Positions 3,470-17,387 of a stretch of DNA of 17,387 nucleotides are shown in pieces. The stretch lies in NCBI GenBank assembly GCA_964508365.1, contig CAZDTP010000069.1, forward strand, positions 1-17,387, written 5' to 3'. The stretch is from an uncultured archaeon. Its GTDB lineage: Archaea > Asgardarchaeota > Lokiarchaeia > Sigyniarchaeales > SOKP01. A program made the translations under genes and the position numbers. The notes under the pieces are model-generated. The model saw nothing but the letters and a program-made list of their open reading frames with translations, did not search any database and was not told the DNA's origin. The first letter of the stretch is position 1; each line of letters begins with the position of its first letter.

Positions 3470-5869
3470 TTATAATTCATTTAATTTTGCTTTTTTTTTC
3501 TCTTTCTTGTTTTCACCAACATATGGTTTTTGATATTCTCCTGGTTTTACTGGTCCTAATTTTTCAAGTTCAGTTTTAAAATTTGACACAACCCGTGCGA
3601 ATTTTTCCCCTTCTCCAGCAGAAATACTCTCTATCCTCACGCGATTTTCATTTAATCCCGCCTCGCTGAGGATTTCTCTAATACTTTCATATCTATTGGC
3701 CGCTTTTATAAAACCCGTATCGTAGTGGCAATCTTGTGGGTGGCAACCTGCAATCAATACTCCATCGGCTCCATTAAAAAAAGCTTCAAATACTAATGAT
3801 GGGTTTAGCATTGCTGTACACATAACCCTTATTGACCTTACATTAGTAGGATAATTTATTTTGCTGGTTCCAGCCAGATCTGCTCCCATATAAGAACACC
3901 AATTGCAAAGGAATGCTATAATTAATGGATATTCAGCTTTTTCACCCAAAATCCTATTAATTTGAACGCTTATCTGTTTTTTAGTAAAACCAGGGATATA
4001 TAACGCATCAGTATGACACATCGCTGCGCATGCCCCACATCCCGTACAATTGGCAGTAGTGATATTCAATTTATTGTTTTCTATTTTTAGGGCATTATAT
4101 ATACAAATATTCTCACATAGTCTGCATAAATCACATTCATTTGAATTAAAGTGTACGATATGAGGATCAAGCTCGACATGTCCTTTGGACATTAAGGCAA
4201 TTGCTTTCGCGGCCGCACTTTCAGCGTGAGCTATACTATTCGGAATATCTTTAGGACCTTGGATAGCTCCTGCTAAAAATATACCATTTACGGACGTTTC
4301 AGAAGGTTTTATCTTAAGATGCTTTTCTAATAAAAATCCATATGGACCTTGAGAAATGTTAAGTAATTGACTTAATTCATCTGTGTTTTCAGCAGGTTCA
4401 ATTCCAACGGCCAAAACGACGAGGTCAGCCTTTCTTTCAAAAAGTCTATCATTTATTACATCTTCGCCCCGAATCAATAATTCTCCAGTTTTAGATAAGT
4501 CATCCTTAAGAACGGCAGATATATTACTCTTAATAAATCTAATACCAAAAACTTCTTGTGCGCGATTGTAGAACTCTTCACAGTTTTTTCCTATTGCTCG
4601 TATGTCATTATAATATATACTAATCTCAGTTTCTGGATGCTCTTTTTTTATCATTACAGCTTGTTTAATTGAAACATTACAGCAGACTTGACTGCAATAG
4701 TCGTGGTGAATCGCGCTATTTCGTGAACCTACACATAGAATAAATGAAACTTTTGTAGGTATCTCTCCATTAGATGGTCTCACTATCTTACCGTGCGTCG
4801 GTCCATCAGTATTTAGCAAACGTTCAACTTGCATGGTTGTAACTACGTCCAAATATTTCTGGTAATTGAATTCACTAAGCAAACTAGGATCAAATGTTTT
4901 GAATCCTGTAGCGGTTATTATAGTTCCAACTTCAAATTCAATTATCTCGGATTTTTGCTCGAAATCAATTGCGTCGCGATCGCAAGCTTGGGCACACGCT
5001 TTACATCCAATACAATACTCCTCTAATATGTTTGGAATGAGAGGAATCGCCTGTGGATAAGCTACATCTATAGCTTTTCTAGGAAAGAAAGTGTCTTCAA
5101 CATCAATGGGACAAACATCCCTACATAAATTGAAGCAACCAACGCAAGTTTCTTCGTTAACAAAACGGGGTTGTTTCTTGACTCTTACGGTAAAGTTTCC
5201 AACATATCCATCAATACTTTCTATGTTACTATAAGTAAATAACTCAATATTCGGATGATCCTTGACTTCTAACATCAGTGGTCCAAGAATACATATAGAA
5301 CAATCTAGCGTAGGAAAAGTCTTGTCAAAAAGGGCCATTTTGCCTCCAATTGTTAAGTCTTTTTCCACTAAGTAAACCTTGTACCCCGCATCTGCTATAA
5401 CTAGCGAAGCTTTAATCCCCGCAATTCCACCCCCAATAATTAGTGCCGAAGGATTGACTTTCGCACGTTGAACTTCTAAGGGTTCGAGAAGTTTAACTTG
5501 TTCTATTGCCATATTTATTTGATCTATTGCTTTCGTTGTAGCTTTCTCAGGATTATCGTCATGCACCCAGGAATTTTGTTCTCTGATATTTGCAAAAGAT
5601 ATCAAATATCGATTGATACCAGCTTTTTCTATTGTTTTTCTAAACAACAATCCATGCAATTTAAAAGAACAAGCAGCAATTACTACCCGGTCGATCTCGT
5701 GTTCTTTTATCTCGCTAGTAATTTTTGTTAAACCTAATTCTGCGCATAAATATTGATCTCCTATCACGTGAACATCAGGGTACTCTTTAAAGTGGTCTAT
5801 TAATTTGCTGTTGTCAATTACTCCGCTAATATTCTTACCGCAGTCGCAGATGAATAAGCCAATTTTCAA
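3470..5869 (-). CDS. hdrA: Heterodisulfide reductase subunit A-like flavoprotein fused to a C-terminal MvhD domain
   Basis: HdrA N-terminus (FICDCG, AACS...H, ANIREQ), FAD motif GGGIAG, CVGSR, YCSQVCC, four ferredoxin-type Cys motifs and GIFLAG. The MvhD motifs FLCNWCSY, RVMCT and AGCHPQDCHY follow. TTG start with GTGAGG upstream. Confidence 0.92.
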   Translation of the reverse strand: MKIGLFICDCGKNISGVIDNSKLIDHFKEYPDVHVIGDQYLCAELGLTKITSEIKEHEIDRVVIAACSFKLHGLLFRKTIEKAGINRYLISFANIREQNSWVHDDNPEKATTKAIDQINMAIEQVKLLEPLEVQRAKVNPSALIIGGGIAGIKASLVIADAGYKVYLVEKDLTIGGKMALFDKTFPTLDCSICILGPLMLEVKDHPNIELFTYSNIESIDGYVGNFTVRVKKQPRFVNEETCVGCFNLCRDVCPIDVEDTFFPRKAIDVAYPQAIPLIPNILEEYCIGCKACAQACDRDAIDFEQKSEIIEFEVGTIITATGFKTFDPSLLSEFNYQKYLDVVTTMQVERLLNTDGPTHGKIVRPSNGEIPTKVSFILCVGSRNSAIHHDYCSQVCCNVSIKQAVMIKKEHPETEISIYYNDIRAIGKNCEEFYNRAQEVFGIRFIKSNISAVLKDDLSKTGELLIRGEDVINDRLFERKADLVVLAVGIEPAENTDELSQLLNISQGPYGFLLEKHLKIKPSETSVNGIFLAGAIQGPKDIPNSIAHAESAAAKAIALMSKGHVELDPHIVHFNSNECDLCRLCENICIYNALKIENNKLNITTANCTGCGACAAMCHTDALYIPGFTKKQISVQINRILGEKAEYPLIIAFLCNWCSYMGADLAGTSKINYPTNVRSIRVMCTAMLNPSLVFEAFFNGADGVLIAGCHPQDCHYDTGFIKAANRYESIREILSEAGLNENRVRIESISAGEGEKFARVVSNFKTELEKLGPVKPGEYQKPYVGENKKEKKKAKLNEL

Positions 5870-6128
5870 TTTAAACCCTCACATTTATATTCAATTTTTG
5901 CAAACCTATGAGTAATATAAAATGATGTGTATATTAATTGTTCCTAGTATATGATTAAAATTAATTTTAACCATTGTTTAGAATAAAGATTTTGCGGTTT
6001 TTACTTATTTAGCATATCTTTTGATAAGAAAGAGTATATGCCGAAGATATCAGGTTTAATAAAAGATCCCGAGCCAATCACTGCGATTTTGTCTTTATTT
6101 TTCTAAAATCAATTCTAATCCTTATTTT

Positions 6129-7541: not shown

Positions 7542-8153
7542 TTATGAAATCATATCTTTTGACAAGAAAGGGTACACTTTGAAGATATTAAAATCGTTTC
7601 GTCTCATCTCAAAAAAATATTCTTTCTCCATTTCGTATTCTTCGTTAGCCCATTTTATTATCTCCTCTTTCGAATAAAACTTTCCTTTGTTATCAAGCGA
7701 ATTTTGAAGCGCGGGACATTTTTTAGAGTAATCATTAAAATTGCTTACGCTATTAATGAGCATGTTCCATCCAATTGGGAACGCGCGACATTGGAAAGGT
7801 CTAGCTTTGTAGATCGTACATTCGTTTTCTTTTAAGAAGTCGCAATGCTCGTCGTCCCCCGTAAACTTAAACCCAAGAGATTTATATCTGTAGGTTTTTC
7901 CTTTTTCTTCTCCAGGTTCCTTCCAAAAGAACGAATCGTCTATTACTTTAAGGTACTCCTTCGCGAATTGTTTTAACCCTAAAGTACCCCTTATCTTTAA
8001 GTGCTTCGCTAACCTTTTAATGTCGTCTTGGTACAAATACACTTCTCCTTCCTTAAAACCCCGACAACAAGAACCGCACGTCTCGCAGGTGAAATACACG
8101 CCGTTTTCGAACTTCTTTGCTAGCTGAATTTTACGCGAATACGAATCGGTCAC
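7542..8153 (-). CDS. YkgJ family cysteine-cluster (Zn/Fe-chelating) protein
   Basis: FTCETCGSCC, CDFLKENECTIYKARPFQCRAFP and a distal CPA. GTG start. Confidence 0.88.
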   Translation of the reverse strand: MTDSYSRKIQLAKKFENGVYFTCETCGSCCRGFKEGEVYLYQDDIKRLAKHLKIRGTLGLKQFAKEYLKVIDDSFFWKEPGEEKGKTYRYKSLGFKFTGDDEHCDFLKENECTIYKARPFQCRAFPIGWNMLINSVSNFNDYSKKCPALQNSLDNKGKFYSKEEIIKWANEEYEMEKEYFFEMRRNDFNIFKVYPFLSKDMIS

Positions 8154-8192: not shown

Positions 8193-10547
8193 TTAGCTTT
8201 TAACACATATTAATTTCTCGATATCCTCAAGGATCCTTCGAGGAATCCCCCTAGTTACTATAAATTTGTTCTTTTTCTCTTGCCATAATCGTACAAATTC
8301 TTTAATTTCTGCCCTAAGTATTTCGGGATCGAATTCGAGCGCAGTATGACTGCTAAACGAAAGACATTTTACTTTAAAATGATTAAGGTTACAATGATTT
8401 TTGATTCTTTGTTTAACCATTATTCCGTAGGACGCAATCTGTGGAAGGGATTTATAAATCTCGTACGCGTCTTTTTTGTAATCGCAAACAAATAAAGTAT
8501 CTTCTTTAACCATAATTAAATCTATGTGCCCAGTAAAAAAGGAGTTTTCTTCCTTCAATTCCTTCCAAATAGGCGTCTCTATTGCAATTACATCTCCGTT
8601 ACCTTCTAGTAGTTTCGTTAAAATCGGTTCGTGAAACGAGTTATCGGGGGGAGTTACCCCTTCTTTTTTGTATCTTTTTATTACGTCCTTCGCAATCGCG
8701 CACAATTCGTAGTTCTCGTCGTGCTCTACTTTGTGCTTTAAAGTATCGATTAAATGCTCTTTTATGTTTATGTCAGTTCCAAGCTTTCCTCTCTTTATGG
8801 CGATTAACTGAACGCTCTTATCACCTTTTAATATCAAGTCCGAAGCCCTATATCCCTTCATTTCTTTGAAAAACGAGCGCGGTATGTTCTCTTTTAAAAT
8901 CTCAGTAATTAAATGGGTCAATCCTTTTTTAATCTCAGGGTTAGCGTTTTCTAATTTAGATAAGTTGACTTTAAAGTGATATATTTTGCCCTTGTGGTGA
9001 AAATGCCTGTCGGTTATTAATTTCTTTTTATACTCCTCTTTTTCAGTTCTAAAATAAGCGTTCGAAACGTAGGAATACAGATCGTTAAAACCGTGATAGC
9101 GAATTTTATAACGCTGGATTTGATTTAATGATTTCACAAACTCTTTTTGGGGTAACACAATTCCTCTAAAATAATTTAGGTAAACACAAAGAAATACAGA
9201 AGCGATTAATTTTGGTTGTCTTGAACCAGAAGGTAGATTTTCGTAAAAATCTTCACTCAAACTTTTCTCGTATATTTCTATAACGCTTTCAGCTAAATTC
9301 TTTGAATCGTTGATAATCTGACAATATTCTTTAACGTAATTTGTTACCAATCGAAAATATTCTTTTTCGCTTAGAGATTCCGAAGGCATTAATTTACGAA
9401 TAACCTCGTACTTAGGTCTATGTTTCAGGCGATTGAGAACAAAATTTACTCCTATATTGAACTTAGGGTAACTTATTTTTAACTTTTGAGCAATTTCGTT
9501 TTGTTTTGGTAAGGTCGATTTTCTGTCGTAGGAATCAATCGTGTAAACAATAAAGAGCAAAGCGGAAAAAAAGTGCTTGTACCCAATTTCTTGTTGCTTA
9601 AACGCTTTGTAAAAATTTTTAAACCCAATTATTCTATTGTACTTATCGAAATCGTCCATAAGGCAATCAAATGCTTCTAAAGCCTTAGAAATAAGTTCGT
9701 TGCCTAGATTAAGTTTTCTAGCGTCCGTTAAAAGATTTCTATTCATTAATTTTGAAAACGAGTTAAGGTTTAATTCTGTTTGATTCTCAAGATAAACTTT
9801 CTCGTAATTTAGAACTCGTTCCAAAGTAGAATGAAAGATGTTACACGAGTCGGAAAACATCTTCCTCTTTAGTCGCACGATTTCGGAAAAACTACTTTTA
9901 GTAATCTTCTTATGAGGTTCTACAATTTCTTCTTTCAACAGAATATAATAAAGTATCGAACTCGATACATACGCTGGTTCTTTTATAGGGGAGAGGTCGC
10001 AAAATAATTGCTTAATTGACTTTTTCTTAGATTCAGAATTGAATTTATTTAATAGCTGGTTATACAATTCTATAGATTTATTAAGTAAGGTGTTGTAGTT
10101 CATACTCGTAAGATTAGCGTTAATTATTACGGTACAATAATGGTTTAAATATCTCTTAACCAGAAAATCTAAGTCTAAAAGAGATATGTTTTTACTCGAG
10201 GGAAGGTAAATAACTCCGTATCCATCTATTTTCTTAACCCATTGTAAAACGACGGGAAATACTTTATCTAATCCGCCAATAGAGAACGAATCGAAAAGGC
10301 GAATCACGTCTTTTCTATAAATGACGCCAAAATTACTCTTTCTTATGTTTCTCCAGTTAAGTAAATAGGTAATTAACGCTCCCGCTATATATTTTGGGTG
10401 TTTTACCGTGGTAGGTAAAGCGTTGTAGAACTCTTTAAAAGCAGATTCCTTACTTTCGCAATGTTTTCGAATCGAATCTAAAATAAGATTAAAGAGTACG
10501 AACGCTTCGTTTTTAAAATCGCTATTGAGCCCGTTATTTTTTCCCAT
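8193..10547 (-). CDS. Multi-domain protein: about four TFIIB/TFB-like cyclin boxes plus a C-terminal PD-(D/E)xK nuclease domain
   Basis: Repeats HPKYIAGALITYLL (aa ~50), EPAYVSSSILYYIL, KHFFSALLFIVY...KQNEIAQKLKIS and RQPKLIASVFLCVY...PQKEFVKSL (aa ~443). Nuclease motifs IAIETPIW (E657), TGHIDL (~672), CDYKK (D689) and PQIASY. The frame stays open 47 codons upstream of the annotated ATG. Confidence 0.8.
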   Translation of the reverse strand: MGKNNGLNSDFKNEAFVLFNLILDSIRKHCESKESAFKEFYNALPTTVKHPKYIAGALITYLLNWRNIRKSNFGVIYRKDVIRLFDSFSIGGLDKVFPVVLQWVKKIDGYGVIYLPSSKNISLLDLDFLVKRYLNHYCTVIINANLTSMNYNTLLNKSIELYNQLLNKFNSESKKKSIKQLFCDLSPIKEPAYVSSSILYYILLKEEIVEPHKKITKSSFSEIVRLKRKMFSDSCNIFHSTLERVLNYEKVYLENQTELNLNSFSKLMNRNLLTDARKLNLGNELISKALEAFDCLMDDFDKYNRIIGFKNFYKAFKQQEIGYKHFFSALLFIVYTIDSYDRKSTLPKQNEIAQKLKISYPKFNIGVNFVLNRLKHRPKYEVIRKLMPSESLSEKEYFRLVTNYVKEYCQIINDSKNLAESVIEIYEKSLSEDFYENLPSGSRQPKLIASVFLCVYLNYFRGIVLPQKEFVKSLNQIQRYKIRYHGFNDLYSYVSNAYFRTEKEEYKKKLITDRHFHHKGKIYHFKVNLSKLENANPEIKKGLTHLITEILKENIPRSFFKEMKGYRASDLILKGDKSVQLIAIKRGKLGTDINIKEHLIDTLKHKVEHDENYELCAIAKDVIKRYKKEGVTPPDNSFHEPILTKLLEGNGDVIAIETPIWKELKEENSFFTGHIDLIMVKEDTLFVCDYKKDAYEIYKSLPQIASYGIMVKQRIKNHCNLNHFKVKCLSFSSHTALEFDPEILRAEIKEFVRLWQEKKNKFIVTRGIPRRILEDIEKLICVKS

Positions 10548-10765
10548 TGGAAAGCTTAATTCTATTTCTCTATCCTGTATTTTCCTATTTAAGGCGTCAA
10601 CAAGCTTAGTGATAGATTCCCATACTTTTTTTTCGTATATGTTCGTTTTAAGCAGTATTTTCTCACATCTCGTATTAGTTTCGTTAATTTATAATTCTAT
10701 TTTTAACATAATAAATAAAAAGAGATAATAGATTTATCGTTCATAATGTTCGTACCAACTGAGGC

Positions 10766-11044
10766 TTATATCCCACAATTATTTCGAATTTCTTCCTCGG
10801 AATAAAATTTATCGCATTTAATGCAATAGCAGATATTACTATCTAAAATTTCTAATACCGTATCGCACGCAAAACAATAAACTTTTATCTCTCGGTGGTT
10901 AGTGCTTATTTCTTCTTTTAAATTGTTTAACTTTTGTAATATTCCATTCAAATCTTCCTTATTAAAATAAAAGGGAACGTCATTGTTTTTCTGCAACGCA
11001 AAATAGTCGTTGACTATAGATTTTAAGATTCTAATTTCAGCCAT
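10766..11044 (-). CDS. Small protein with a C-terminal Zn-ribbon (CFAC-x12-CIKC)
   Basis: Two CxxC pairs. The ORF track starts at GTG 11065, but the in-frame ATG at 11044 overlaps the upstream TGA (ATGGCTGA), which fits translational coupling. Confidence 0.65.
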   Translation of the reverse strand: MAEIRILKSIVNDYFALQKNNDVPFYFNKEDLNGILQKLNNLKEEISTNHREIKVYCFACDTVLEILDSNICYCIKCDKFYSEEEIRNNCGI

Positions 11045-11366
11045 CTTCTCGTTTTCCTCTTGCACTGCTATAACCTACTCCTTTTGGCACTTTTATTAAT
11101 CCACAATGACTACATTCAAAGATATCTCCCCGCTTCTCCATGTATTCAATTTGTCCGTTATTATAGCTCGTAGGACAACTTAGACAAACTCTCGCGATTG
11201 AATCAGATTTGTAATCCCTCTCGCAAATAATGTTCCCGTTTTGGTCTAATTGTTCTATTTCATATTCTTTAAGGTCGTAAAACCTTTTAGAATGCTTCAC
11301 GGTTATCTTACGCACCACGCTGTCGTGATACCCGTTCCCGTGCGCCCTTCCAACTTTTATTGACAT
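11037..11366 (-). CDS. Small Zn-ribbon protein (CLSC-x20-CSHC), 109 aa
   Basis: ATG start, two CxxC pairs, and its stop overlaps the next gene's start. Confidence 0.7.
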   Translation of the reverse strand: MSIKVGRAHGNGYHDSVVRKITVKHSKRFYDLKEYEIEQLDQNGNIICERDYKSDSIARVCLSCPTSYNNGQIEYMEKRGDIFECSHCGLIKVPKGVGYSSARGKREDG

Positions 11367-12917: not shown

Positions 12918-13003
12918 TATACCCTTTTTTAGGTAACTTAATTATATTATTTTCTCCTAATCTTAATTTCTAGTCCTATTAATGAGTTACTTTAATACTC
13001 AAC

Positions 13004-13109
13004 AAAATGCACTCCCACCGTGGCGACTCGGGCGCGTCCGCTCCGAAGGGGCGGTAGGACGCCAAGCCACGCATTAAGCGAAGCGCCAATATCAAAGTCG
13101 AAATTTTAA
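13004..13109. repeat. GC-rich palindromic dispersed element, copy 1
   Basis: Near-identical to 17252-17350. Nested stems CGTGGC/GCCACG, GCGTCC/GGACGC and GCTCC-GAA-GGGGC. Weaker homology extends upstream to about 12981. Confidence 0.92.
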
Positions 13110-15008: not shown

Positions 15009-15290
15009 TTAGATAACTTCGTTAATTAGTTTAAAGGTTGATTAATAGCATCCTTATTTTTATTAACGGATGAATCACTAGATTATTTTCAAGAACAAAG
15101 TAATTGTTAAAGAAAGGATAGTTGAAGCATTTGGAATAACTTTTAATGTAATTCTTTGATTTTTTATTATTATTTTCTCATAGAATATCCAAAAAAACAC
15201 CTAAACCCCATATGAAATCTATTTAAATAAGATTTGTGTAAAAACTCAAGTATTTATTTAATTAAAAACAAAATATTTAGTGACAATAAT

Positions 15291-16292
15291 TTGAACGAAA
15301 TAGTATTAAAAATAGACAACTTAAGTAAGAAGTTTAAACAATTTGTTGCAGTTAATAATGTAAGTCTTGAGGTTAACAAAGGGGAGACGGTGGGATTTGT
15401 CGGTCCAAATGGAGCTGGTAAAACAACAACTATAAAATTAATCGCAAAACTATTAAAACCCACTTCTGGAAATGTCTTAATAAAAAATATGGGGGGAGAT
15501 TTACAGGATATACGCATAAATTCGCAGGATCTCGTCTCAATGGGCTTTTTAATCGACATTCCCGTGTTTTACGATTCAACTCCTTATGTTTTATTAAAAC
15601 ATTACGCTCAACTTCACAAATACCCAAAAAATAAAATAGATCAACGAATTGACGAATTGCTTTATTTTTTTGATTTAGCAAATTGGAAAAAAAAAAGGAT
15701 AAAAAAATTTTCGAAAGGCATGAAACAAAAACTAGGATTTATACAAGCTATCATTCACGAACCAGAGATTATATTCTTAGACGAGCCTCAAACGGGGTTA
15801 GATCCAAAGGCTCGAATCAAAATTCGCCAATATTTGATGACTCTCAAAGAACAAAAAAAAACGATCTTTATAGCATCGCATATGCTACGAGAGATATCAG
15901 AAATATGCGAGAAAATTGCGTTTATAAACAACGGAGAAATTATTAAATTTGATCGAATCGAAAATATGGAAAAAGTGCTTAAAACAAGCGAAATTGTGTG
16001 CCAACTTCTTGAGCCAATTCCAAAAGAAAGATTTGAGCTGGTCGAGAAAAAACTTAACGAAAAATTAGCTCCGTATTTGGATAAAAATATTGATCCTACG
16101 ATTGTAGAATCGCCCGTGCAATATCAACCCTCAAGCAAGAATCTTACCATCTACTACGATGGGAGACTTGAATCTAAAGGAGAGATTTTTAAAATTTTAG
16201 GAAAAGATTTCGATTCAGAGTTTACCGTAATATCGTTTTCACAATCAAAAACATCGCTCTTAGAAAAACTATACTTAGAAAAAATTAAATAA
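15291..16292 (+). CDS. ABC transporter ATP-binding protein (ABC-2/CcmA-like exporter)
   Basis: Walker A GPNGAGKTT, signature FSKGMKQK, Walker B IIFLDEP and H-loop ASH. The ORF track starts at TTG 15234; the in-frame TTG 15291 gives a typical N-terminus (NEIVLKIDNLSKKF). Confidence 0.93.
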   Translation: MNEIVLKIDNLSKKFKQFVAVNNVSLEVNKGETVGFVGPNGAGKTTTIKLIAKLLKPTSGNVLIKNMGGDLQDIRINSQDLVSMGFLIDIPVFYDSTPYVLLKHYAQLHKYPKNKIDQRIDELLYFFDLANWKKKRIKKFSKGMKQKLGFIQAIIHEPEIIFLDEPQTGLDPKARIKIRQYLMTLKEQKKTIFIASHMLREISEICEKIAFINNGEIIKFDRIENMEKVLKTSEIVCQLLEPIPKERFELVEKKLNEKLAPYLDKNIDPTIVESPVQYQPSSKNLTIYYDGRLESKGEIFKILGKDFDSEFTVISFSQSKTSLLEKLYLEKIK

Positions 16293-17139: not shown

Positions 17140-17251
17140 ATTTCGAACTAACTGGTTGGAACAATTTCAACCTATTAAACGAGGAGCTATACTTCTATAT
17201 GACGATAAAGAGAACAGCTTAGGTATAAAAATGAGTAACATCAACGCTCCG

Positions 17252-17350
17252 AAAATTCACTCCCACCATGGCGACTCGGGCGCGTCCGCTCCGAAGGGGC
17301 AGTAGGACGCCAAGCCACGCTAAGCGCCAATACCAAAGTCGAATTTTTAA
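17252..17350. repeat. GC-rich palindromic dispersed element, copy 2
   Basis: Same orientation as copy 1, differing by 5 substitutions and 7 nt of deletion in my manual alignment. Its ends AAAATTC-ACT and AGTCGAATTTT form an imperfect inverted repeat. Confidence 0.92.
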
Positions 17351-17387
17351 AGGAGCAACGGTTGTGAAATGATATTTATGAATGAAA

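Follow-up and report, generated by a model that had tools for sequence, protein, structure and literature searches.

To our knowledge, the cyclin repeats of TFB and TFIIB are confined almost entirely to factors of transcription initiation; Orc6 is distantly related. In the core of archaeal TFB and of TFIIB (PF00382; structures 1AIS, 1D3U, 5WH1 and 1VOL), as in Brf1 and Brf2, each repeat is a five-helix cyclin fold, in which a helix of the 'AAAxLYxA' type is followed by a pair of helices resembling a helix-turn-helix (HTH). Nucleases of the RecB family, such as Cas4 (SSO0001, 4IC1), AddA/AddB (3U44), MGME1 (5ZYT) and RecE (3H4R), have the motifs E/GxhD/DxK/QxxxY and an alpha-beta core fold with an N-terminal helical arch region. 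The PD-(D/E)xK fold is also that of the homing endonucleases of the I-Ssp6803I type, which are selfish, site-specific, small and intron-encoded, read DNA via the nuclease fold itself and have no cyclin or TFB repeats. Here we describe a gene of an uncultured archaeon of the Sigyniarchaeales (Lokiarchaeia) in which one protein, P0001, combines four cyclin folds of TFB descent with an intact active site of the RecB/Cas4 type. The gene is located on a DNA stretch of 17,387 nucleotides (GenBank assembly GCA_964508365.1, contig CAZDTP010000069.1), hereafter the window, which is the entire contig C69 of a 4.07-Mb, 149-contig genome (G000). The genes next to it share up to 92% identity with metagenome-assembled genomes labelled Promethearchaeota/Promethearchaeia, the Loki-type Asgard archaea. 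A preliminary description, made from the letters of the sequence, had proposed this layout and had known of no earlier account of it; no description of TFB-like repeats fused to a nuclease was found in the searchable literature.

We read P0001, at a probability of roughly 0.55, as an accessory DNA nuclease that is targeted by its TFB-derived repeats, with a selfish role of the homing type as the most likely and a role in defence as the second. P0001 consists of two parts. The first is an array of four cyclin repeats (R1 to R4) derived from the TFB core and arranged as two duplicated pairs, each repeat retaining its HTH-like end; the second is a PD-(D/E)xK domain that looks active and stems from a stand-alone nuclease, which belongs to the core genes of these archaea. 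The repeats are basic (net charges of +6, +6, +11 and +1 for R1 to R4, respectively), and their array would serve to target the nuclease: it would bind either a long DNA site or a complex of DNA and protein and bring the nuclease to that place. The gene itself would be accessory and subject to quick turnover, and its product would act as a free-standing endonuclease.

Translation of the window gave a frame without stops across 784 amino acids (aa), at the place where the preliminary description had put the gene. Four close homologues, with 67–82% identity and taken from ENA, JGI and NCBI data, were 821–825 aa long and collinear with P0001 from end to end; the length of the orthologous protein is probably 821 aa. 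The possibility had been raised that the junction between the repeats and the nuclease was an assembly chimera. This was ruled out, since the junction recurs across independent assemblies and datasets; the fusion was found in five orthologues and about 25 paralogues. The ratio of nonsynonymous to synonymous substitution rates (dN/dS) between the window gene and a metagenomic orthologue of 80% identity was 0.24 overall. For R1, R2, R3, R4 and the nuclease domain it was 0.20, 0.32, 0.19, 0.17 and 0.24, respectively. As judged from these sequence comparisons, the fused gene is real and is under purifying selection in its lineage.

Internal repeats were suspected because iterative searches with hidden Markov models (HMMs), run on the 154 relatives collected, returned register-shifted matches. 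The family alignment was split into R1 (7–130), R2 (131–258), R3 (259–385) and R4 (386–512), and the parts were compared with hhalign. All pairs of repeats proved mutually homologous, with P values from 2.6e-8 to 4.1e-18. When R1R2 was compared with R3R4, the match extended across 209 columns with P = 1e-24, indicating a duplicated two-repeat unit. An HMM of the single repeat recognised four domains in the orthologue group of the window gene and three in most of the paralogues of about 780 aa. The four segments that had been picked out by eye as following the TFIIB cyclin-box pattern turned out to be helix 2 plus the HTH part of these four tandem homologous repeats, as supported by hhalign, HMM and fold comparisons. 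The proposal of two TFB-core-like pairs without a ribbon also held: no Zn ribbon was found in the N-terminus of P0001, and the extension of 37 aa present in the orthologues is without Cys.

The relation of the repeats to TFB was established by profile comparison. Against an alignment of the TFBs of the same genome, R3 was matched by hhalign with a probability of 92.9% (P = 3.7e-7) over a full cyclin repeat, and a second match was obtained to the other TFB repeat. With R3R4, both repeats were collinear with TFB over 159 columns (probability 63%). HMMs built from the family only were then compared with all 10,636 open reading frames (ORFs) in the genome with a length of 60 aa or more. The sole match of the R3R4 HMM at E < 1e-3, other than to the gene itself, was to a bona fide TFB paralogue (E = 1.8e-5). 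The single-repeat HMM recovered the same TFB as the first non-self match (E = 2.3e-8), followed by another TFB (5e-3) and by two divergent ORFs (5.7e-3 and 4.7e-2), both composed of a Zn ribbon and two repeats. Based on these sequence profiles, the repeats are homologous to the cyclin repeats of TFB. The Pfam TFIIB model (PF00382) gave no match to P0001 even at E ≤ 10, the ORF was absent from the output of the genome-wide PF00382 search, and 1 of 28 family members was matched (E = 0.016). Searches of Pfam and NCBIfam with P0001 returned no TFIIB match, a search of the PDB sequences returned no match at all, and a profile of the family against the PDB sequences gave nothing significant. The repeat region has no model in Pfam, NCBIfam or PHROGs.

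P0001 differs from TFB and TFIIB in having four repeats of about 125 aa each, instead of two, and in an extra segment of about 15–30 residues between helices 1 and 2 of its repeats. It is fused to a nuclease, is not a TFB and is probably not a transcription factor. The genome itself shows a large expansion of TFB, with about eight canonical genes (on contigs C16, C20, C21, C23, C25, C38, C49 and C60), one or two short fragments (ORFs of 90 aa on C22 and C17) and at least four divergent TFB-like ORFs (C48:24157-25068, C49:5061-6134, C51:1628-2917 and C54:20724-21929). The divergent ORFs on C54 and C48 consist of a Zn ribbon and two repeats and were found only by the repeat HMM of the nuclease family.

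Structure models pointed in the same direction. A first AlphaFold2 model, based on 5 sequences, had a predicted local distance difference test score (pLDDT) of 44, and only residues 260–385 (R3) were usable. In VIA comparisons with the PDB, this part of the model matched the core of Pyrococcus woesei TFB (1AIS_B, Z 11.8) and of human TFIIB (5WH1_A, Z 11.7), with a root mean square deviation (rmsd) of 2.7 Å over 99 residues for the latter; further matches were to yeast TFIIB, Brf1 and Trypanosoma brucei TFIIB, and then to cyclins, Rb and Orc6. A second model, based on 145 sequences, reached a pLDDT of 83.7 and a predicted template modelling score (pTM) of 0.56. In this model R3-R4 matched whole TFIIB and TFB cores with Z 11.0–11.7 over 190–205 residues (190 of the 193 residues in the case of 1AIS_B), with an rmsd of 10–15 Å; taking R3 and R3-R4 together, Z was 11.6–11.8 for 1AIS_B and 5WH1_A. 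As the rmsd is this large for the pair and 2.7 Å for one repeat, the modelled orientation between the repeats differs from that in TFIIB. Foldseek ranked TFIIB, TFB and Brf2 on top with a probability of 1.00 and modest E values from 6.6e-3. The concern that the N-terminal repeats might not adopt a cyclin fold was not borne out by the models. Since the Z scores of cyclins come within one unit of those of TFB, the fold alone cannot single out TFB; the sequence evidence does.

Rb, with four cyclin folds in its N-domain and pocket, and the TFIIB-like Orc6 resemble P0001 in their tandem cyclin folds, which serve as a binding platform in these two proteins and may do so in P0001. The model matched Rb over 331 residues (Z 8.7) and Orc6 with Z 6.8–8.4; R4 alone matched pocket B of Rb with Z 9.7 and an rmsd of 3.3 Å. 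Unlike P0001, both proteins are eukaryotic and without a nuclease, and no specific sequence relationship was shown for them; TFB is closer to P0001.

The catalytic site that had been recognised at the C-terminus, of the form E...D...DYK...QxxxY, was confirmed by conservation. In 145 sequences, the residues H639, E657, G673, H674, D676, D689, K691, P702, Q703, Y707 and C728 were near-invariant, and E657, G673, H674, D676, D689, K691, Q703 and Y707 were conserved in at least 90%. The second model had a pLDDT above 90 over residues 600–770. Fold matches of the nuclease domain by VIA were moderate (Z 5.9–6.8) and included Cas4 (4IC1_A, 6.8), AddA (3U44_A, 6.4), NucS (2VLD_B, 6.2) and MGME1 (6.1), and Foldseek returned RecE, Cas4 and MGME1 at probabilities of 0.75–0.94. 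PADLOC, too, gave matches of the Cas4 type, which were weak. On these motifs and folds, the domain is a RecB/Cas4-type PD-(D/E)xK nuclease that looks active. It is not Cas4 proper, because the four Cys residues of the Fe-S cluster are not conserved, only C728 being near-invariant in the 145 sequences. The window contains no cas genes. In contrast to the known RecB-family nucleases, the domain of P0001 also has its own N-terminal subdomain of about 130 aa (509–640) and belongs to a separate family at or below the Pfam threshold. This family comprises 190 clusters at 50% identity (E < 1e-3). The features of the gene and its surroundings are listed in Table 1.

Table 1. Position of the fusion gene, its parts and nearby features; coordinates refer to the window unless another contig (C) or locus (L) is named
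Feature	Coordinates	Strand	Basis or remark
ORF P0001, four TFB-like cyclin repeats and RecB/Cas4-type nuclease	8193..10547	(-)	784 aa from first ATG, stop codon counted in
N-terminal extension, 37 codons in frame	10548..10658	(-)	kept in 821-aa orthologues; gives repeat 1 its first helix
Repeat R1, cyclin-like, residues 1-130	10158..10547	(-)	repeat-HMM domain E 5e-25; whole only with upstream extension
Repeat R2, cyclin-like, residues 131-258	9774..10157	(-)	repeat-HMM domain E 3e-24
Repeat R3, residues 259-385	9393..9773	(-)	best-backed TFB-type cyclin fold: hhalign 92.9%; Z 11.7
Repeat R4, residues 386-508	9024..9392	(-)	R3 and R4 collinear with entire TFB/TFIIB core
PD-(D/E)xK nuclease domain, C-terminal, residues 509-784	8196..9023	(-)	motifs, PDDEXK_1, fold matches
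Catalytic motif block E657, G-H-I-D676, D689-Y-K691, Q703xxxY707	8427..8579	(-)	near-invariant in 145 sequences; PDDEXK_1 alignment
Candidate TATA-like AT-rich box	10685..10695	(-)	27-37 nt 5' of ATA codon; inferred by reading the sequence
CxxCxxCC (PF03692) gene	7542..8153	(-)	39 bp downstream of nuclease gene, same strand
Zn-ribbon protein, 99 aa, upstream	10766..11065	(-)	kept only beside close orthologues L050 and L051
Zn-ribbon protein, 109 aa, upstream	11037..11366	(-)	kept beside orthologue L050
Pieces of split CxxCxxCC copy	C57:1275-1622	(-)	frame open
Pieces of split CxxCxxCC copy	L063:7199-7543; L070:8920-9264, 5759-5989; L069:6829-6936		frames open

The nuclease domain was mostly found alone. 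In 37 of 40 relatives it was a stand-alone protein of about 245 aa, and a search of 300 Asgard genomes recovered this form in 136, mainly in three families, where most genomes have conserved it. The genome studied here has such a stand-alone nuclease of 241 aa next to the gene for ribosomal protein L15e (rpl15e; C45:6448-7173, locus L053). Long fusions (580–1470 aa) were sporadic and restricted to one Lokiarchaeial family, with 0–3 per genome. The fused nucleases carry at least two types of N-terminal module, namely the TFB-like repeats and an unrelated module of about 460 aa. The family forms dozens of clusters at 50% identity without Pfam or NCBIfam annotation. Related loci were not found on viral contigs, nor in one search of genome contigs. 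A second, word-based homologue search yielded only extra fragments, and the ESM Atlas gave no usable match.

Comparison of the window locus with those of congeners revealed repeated loss of the fused gene. In genome G252 only residues 367–784 remain. In G002, G004, G009 and G014 the synteny from HdrA to CxxCxxCC is kept and only the last 36–49 codons of the gene are left, with breakpoints and upstream sequences that differ between these remnants. Gain was seen at another locus: in G229, a paralogue with three repeats forms a clean single-gene insertion of 2.65 kb directly after the stop codon of a rubredoxin gene and upstream of fprA, a site that is empty (about 50 bp) in G176, G159 and G047. 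The rubredoxin gene of G229 also differs from that of three relatives by a 29-bp insertion, through which its last codons are rewritten (L054:8985-9030); this may be a scar left when the paralogue inserted. The fused gene is thus accessory in its distribution and has been repeatedly lost, and it is gained and lost in the manner of a dispensable and possibly mobile gene. The sporadic occurrence of the fused genes, the insertion in G229 and the decay of the locus in congeners lend indirect support to the link with mobile elements that the preliminary description had suggested.

A further pattern concerns the CxxCxxCC gene, which adjoins the nuclease gene, or what remains of it, in all of the examined related loci that extend to the downstream side. 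A diverged second copy of this gene is split at codon 121/122, and its two fragments (codons 6–121 and 122–202) flank the region. The 5' fragment is present on contig C57 and also in G252 and G014; in G014 the 3' fragment is located beyond the intact copy. Contigs C69 and C57 are probably adjacent, because window positions 17333-17387 are identical to C57:1-55 (55 bp), and the sequence past the gene remnants in the congeners matches C57. By analogy, the arrangement resembles that expected of a cassette that inserts in a resident gene while bringing a replacement copy. The WHO/HO homing elements of yeast show such a pattern, in which fragments of the host gene flank the element (Coughlan et al. 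2020, PMC7282813). The likeness of these elements to P0001 is one of behaviour only: a free-standing nuclease with a DNA-binding module, which in P0001 is a predicted one, flanking duplicated fragments of a host gene and decaying copies. Their LAGLIDADG, intein-derived nuclease and their zinc-finger module are unrelated to the parts of P0001.

A footprint of the same kind was found in genome G011, in which a nuclease gene of a sister subfamily has inserted after codon 12 of uvrA (L056:7760-7830 and 10340-10430). The old 5' end of uvrA stays upstream of the inserted gene and a new, synonymously recoded 5' end is present downstream, a homing-like footprint. In at least 17 of 30 relatives, the gap between uvrB and uvrA is 40–220 bp. 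The N-terminal module of the G011 gene is not similar to the TFB repeats (hhalign probability below 1%), and the footprint therefore bears only on the nuclease domain family.

Several observations weigh against the reading of P0001 as a repeat-targeted, homing-type nuclease. The clearest homing-like footprint, that in uvrA, belongs to a subfamily that shares the nuclease domain alone. Between the fragments of the CxxCxxCC gene and its intact copy there has been gene conversion, and the dN/dS of the fragments is 0.06–0.27, by which the idea that the 5' fragment is a neutral relic or simple pseudogene was rejected; a duplication and rearrangement unrelated to the nuclease may therefore account for the split copy. 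Neither an integrase nor terminal repeats were found, nor was there any viral context, and a tblastx search for flanking duplications around the nine paralogue loci with enough flank yielded none that was convincing (one weak match of 42 aa, 26% identity, E 8e-5). The gene neighbourhoods of the paralogues are mutually inconsistent and unrelated. The Pfam check that had been suggested gave, for the nuclease, a PDDEXK_1 (PF12705) score of 19.0 bits (E = 0.0014), below the cut-off of 22. This cut-off was passed by the relatives P0058 (24.5), P0048 (22.3) and P0057 (22.1), and the model matches 19 of 28 fused family members. Furthermore, cyclin folds often bind proteins and not DNA.

In the surroundings of the gene, the survey of homologues that had been proposed gave a divided result: the fusion recurs, and the neighbours are not consistent among paralogues. 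At the close orthologues the block order is 109-aa Zn-ribbon protein, 99-aa Zn-ribbon protein, fusion gene and CxxCxxCC gene. A conserved multi-gene module was rejected, since the Zn-ribbon and CxxCxxCC genes are kept only by close orthologues and are absent beside the paralogues. The 109-aa protein ends in CxxC...CxxCGL(I/V), the second half of which resembles the TFB ribbon motif RG[DE]..C..CGL[IV]. Its likeness to the TFB N-termini of the genome was weak and not significant (hhalign P = 0.0026, probability 12%), and the idea that the upstream proteins represent a detached TFB ribbon was rejected.

Past this block the neighbours differ: the window has a GH4 hydrolase and L051 a HerA/FtsK-like ATPase, and at L052 there are SIR2-TPR and TIR-like genes upstream. 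The ATPase is membrane-anchored (DUF87) and is found downstream in two otherwise different loci (L051:3540-5267 and L058:5162-6895); it is split in 333 and 239 aa at the orthologue (L051) and is 578 aa long at the three-repeat paralogue (L058). At L052:1-7660, a fragment of an orthologue with 69% identity is accompanied by three genes, whose products are a SIR2-TPR protein of 811 aa, a TIR-like protein of 115 aa and a DUF4062-SIR2-TPR protein of 1388 aa, and this region looks like a defence island. Elsewhere in the window, a GC-rich element is present twice (12981-13109 and 17230-17350, 84% identity over 129 bp), the second copy being close to the contig end. An ABC-type ATPase gene on the forward strand (15234-16292) gave a PADLOC match to the model mad3 (E = 3.6e-26) and further matches to several models of defence ATPases; it may belong to an ordinary ABC transporter. 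The ORF of 273 aa that follows it has no Pfam or PADLOC match.

Four other explanations were considered. The first, that the gene in the window genome is a decaying relic without current function, is compatible with the other readings and is possible, if unlikely. The open frame reaches 831 codons without a stop, and ATA (10656-10658 on the reverse strand) stands where the orthologues (L050 and L051) have their ATG start. A start at the next ATG would delete the first helix of repeat 1, and the congeners contain truncated or remnant copies, as described above. Against this, the 831-codon frame is wholly open and the catalytic residues are intact, and the ATA may stem from a sequencing error or be a rarely used start codon, as well as a true loss of the start. 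Because the orthologous start codon reads ATA, the copy in the window may be weakened or dying, also if P0001 is a targeted nuclease of the kind we favour.

Rather more unlikely is that P0001 is primarily a defence nuclease, with a TFB-like array that would sense or mimic the initiation machinery (viral TFB, TBP or viral promoters) and a nuclease that would destroy invading DNA. Fast gene turnover and sporadic distribution would fit such a role, Asgard viruses encode their own TFB, and the HerA/FtsK-like ATPase downstream at L051 and L058 is in line with it. PADLOC gave weak matches at the domain level, to Cas4 and to the Argonaute-associated Cas4-like nuclease Aga_Cas4-like_Nuc (E 5e-4 to 5e-3), but there was no match at the system level and no partner genes were matched. 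The SIR2, TIR-like and TPR genes beside the L052 orthologue are weak evidence, because such genes are very common in Asgard genomes. The other paralogues sit among housekeeping genes, and no partner gene is conserved across the paralogues.

We regard as improbable that the gene encodes an accessory factor of DNA repair or recombination in the host, in which the repeats would be a protein scaffold, as are cyclins, Rb and Orc6, and would bring an end-processing nuclease of the Cas4/RecB kind to a partner, for instance the HerA-like ATPase. In favour of this are the status of the stand-alone nuclease as a conserved core gene, the processing of DNA ends by the fold relatives Cas4, AddA, MGME1 and RecE, the HerA-like ATPase as a neighbour at two loci and the position of the sister-subfamily gene of G011 between uvrB and uvrA. 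However, this last position is an insertion in an otherwise tight junction and not that of a conserved operon member, and the fused form is missing from most genomes searched and has been lost in congeners. More doubtful still is the preliminary suggestion of a nuclease directed to promoters or TBP, or of a factor for transcription-coupled DNA processing, in which the cyclin pairs would dock on TBP-TATA and the B recognition element as TFB does and the nuclease would cut nearby: R3-R4 is collinear with the full TFB core and the many TFB paralogues of the genome mean that a TBP-binding scaffold was available, but P0001 has no Zn ribbon, B-reader, B-linker or Pfam TFIIB match, its HTH recognition helix has lost the TFB-type residues in the hhalign alignments of R3 and R3R4 to TFB, the modelled repeat orientation is unlike that of TFIIB (10–15 Å when both repeats are aligned), and the TBP gene is not adjacent. 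Mimicry or decoying of TFB, which the preliminary description had also suggested, likewise has no specific support.

For the accessory, repeat-targeted nuclease that we prefer, a more far-reaching version can be put forward tentatively, on the analogy with WHO/HO. In Asgard archaea, selfish nucleases may have adopted the DNA-binding core of TFB, turned into tandem repeats, as their targeting array, and the gene described here may encode the nuclease of a homing cassette, one that brings along an intact copy of the CxxCxxCC gene it disrupts, as a counterpart of the WHO/HO elements. The array of three to four cyclin/HTH repeats would then be a new module for the recognition of long DNA sites. 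If the repeat array does bind DNA, it would represent a new modular recognition scaffold, and a selfish or defence nuclease would have co-opted a core domain of a transcription factor. Binding to TBP or promoters would link transcription initiation to DNA cleavage.

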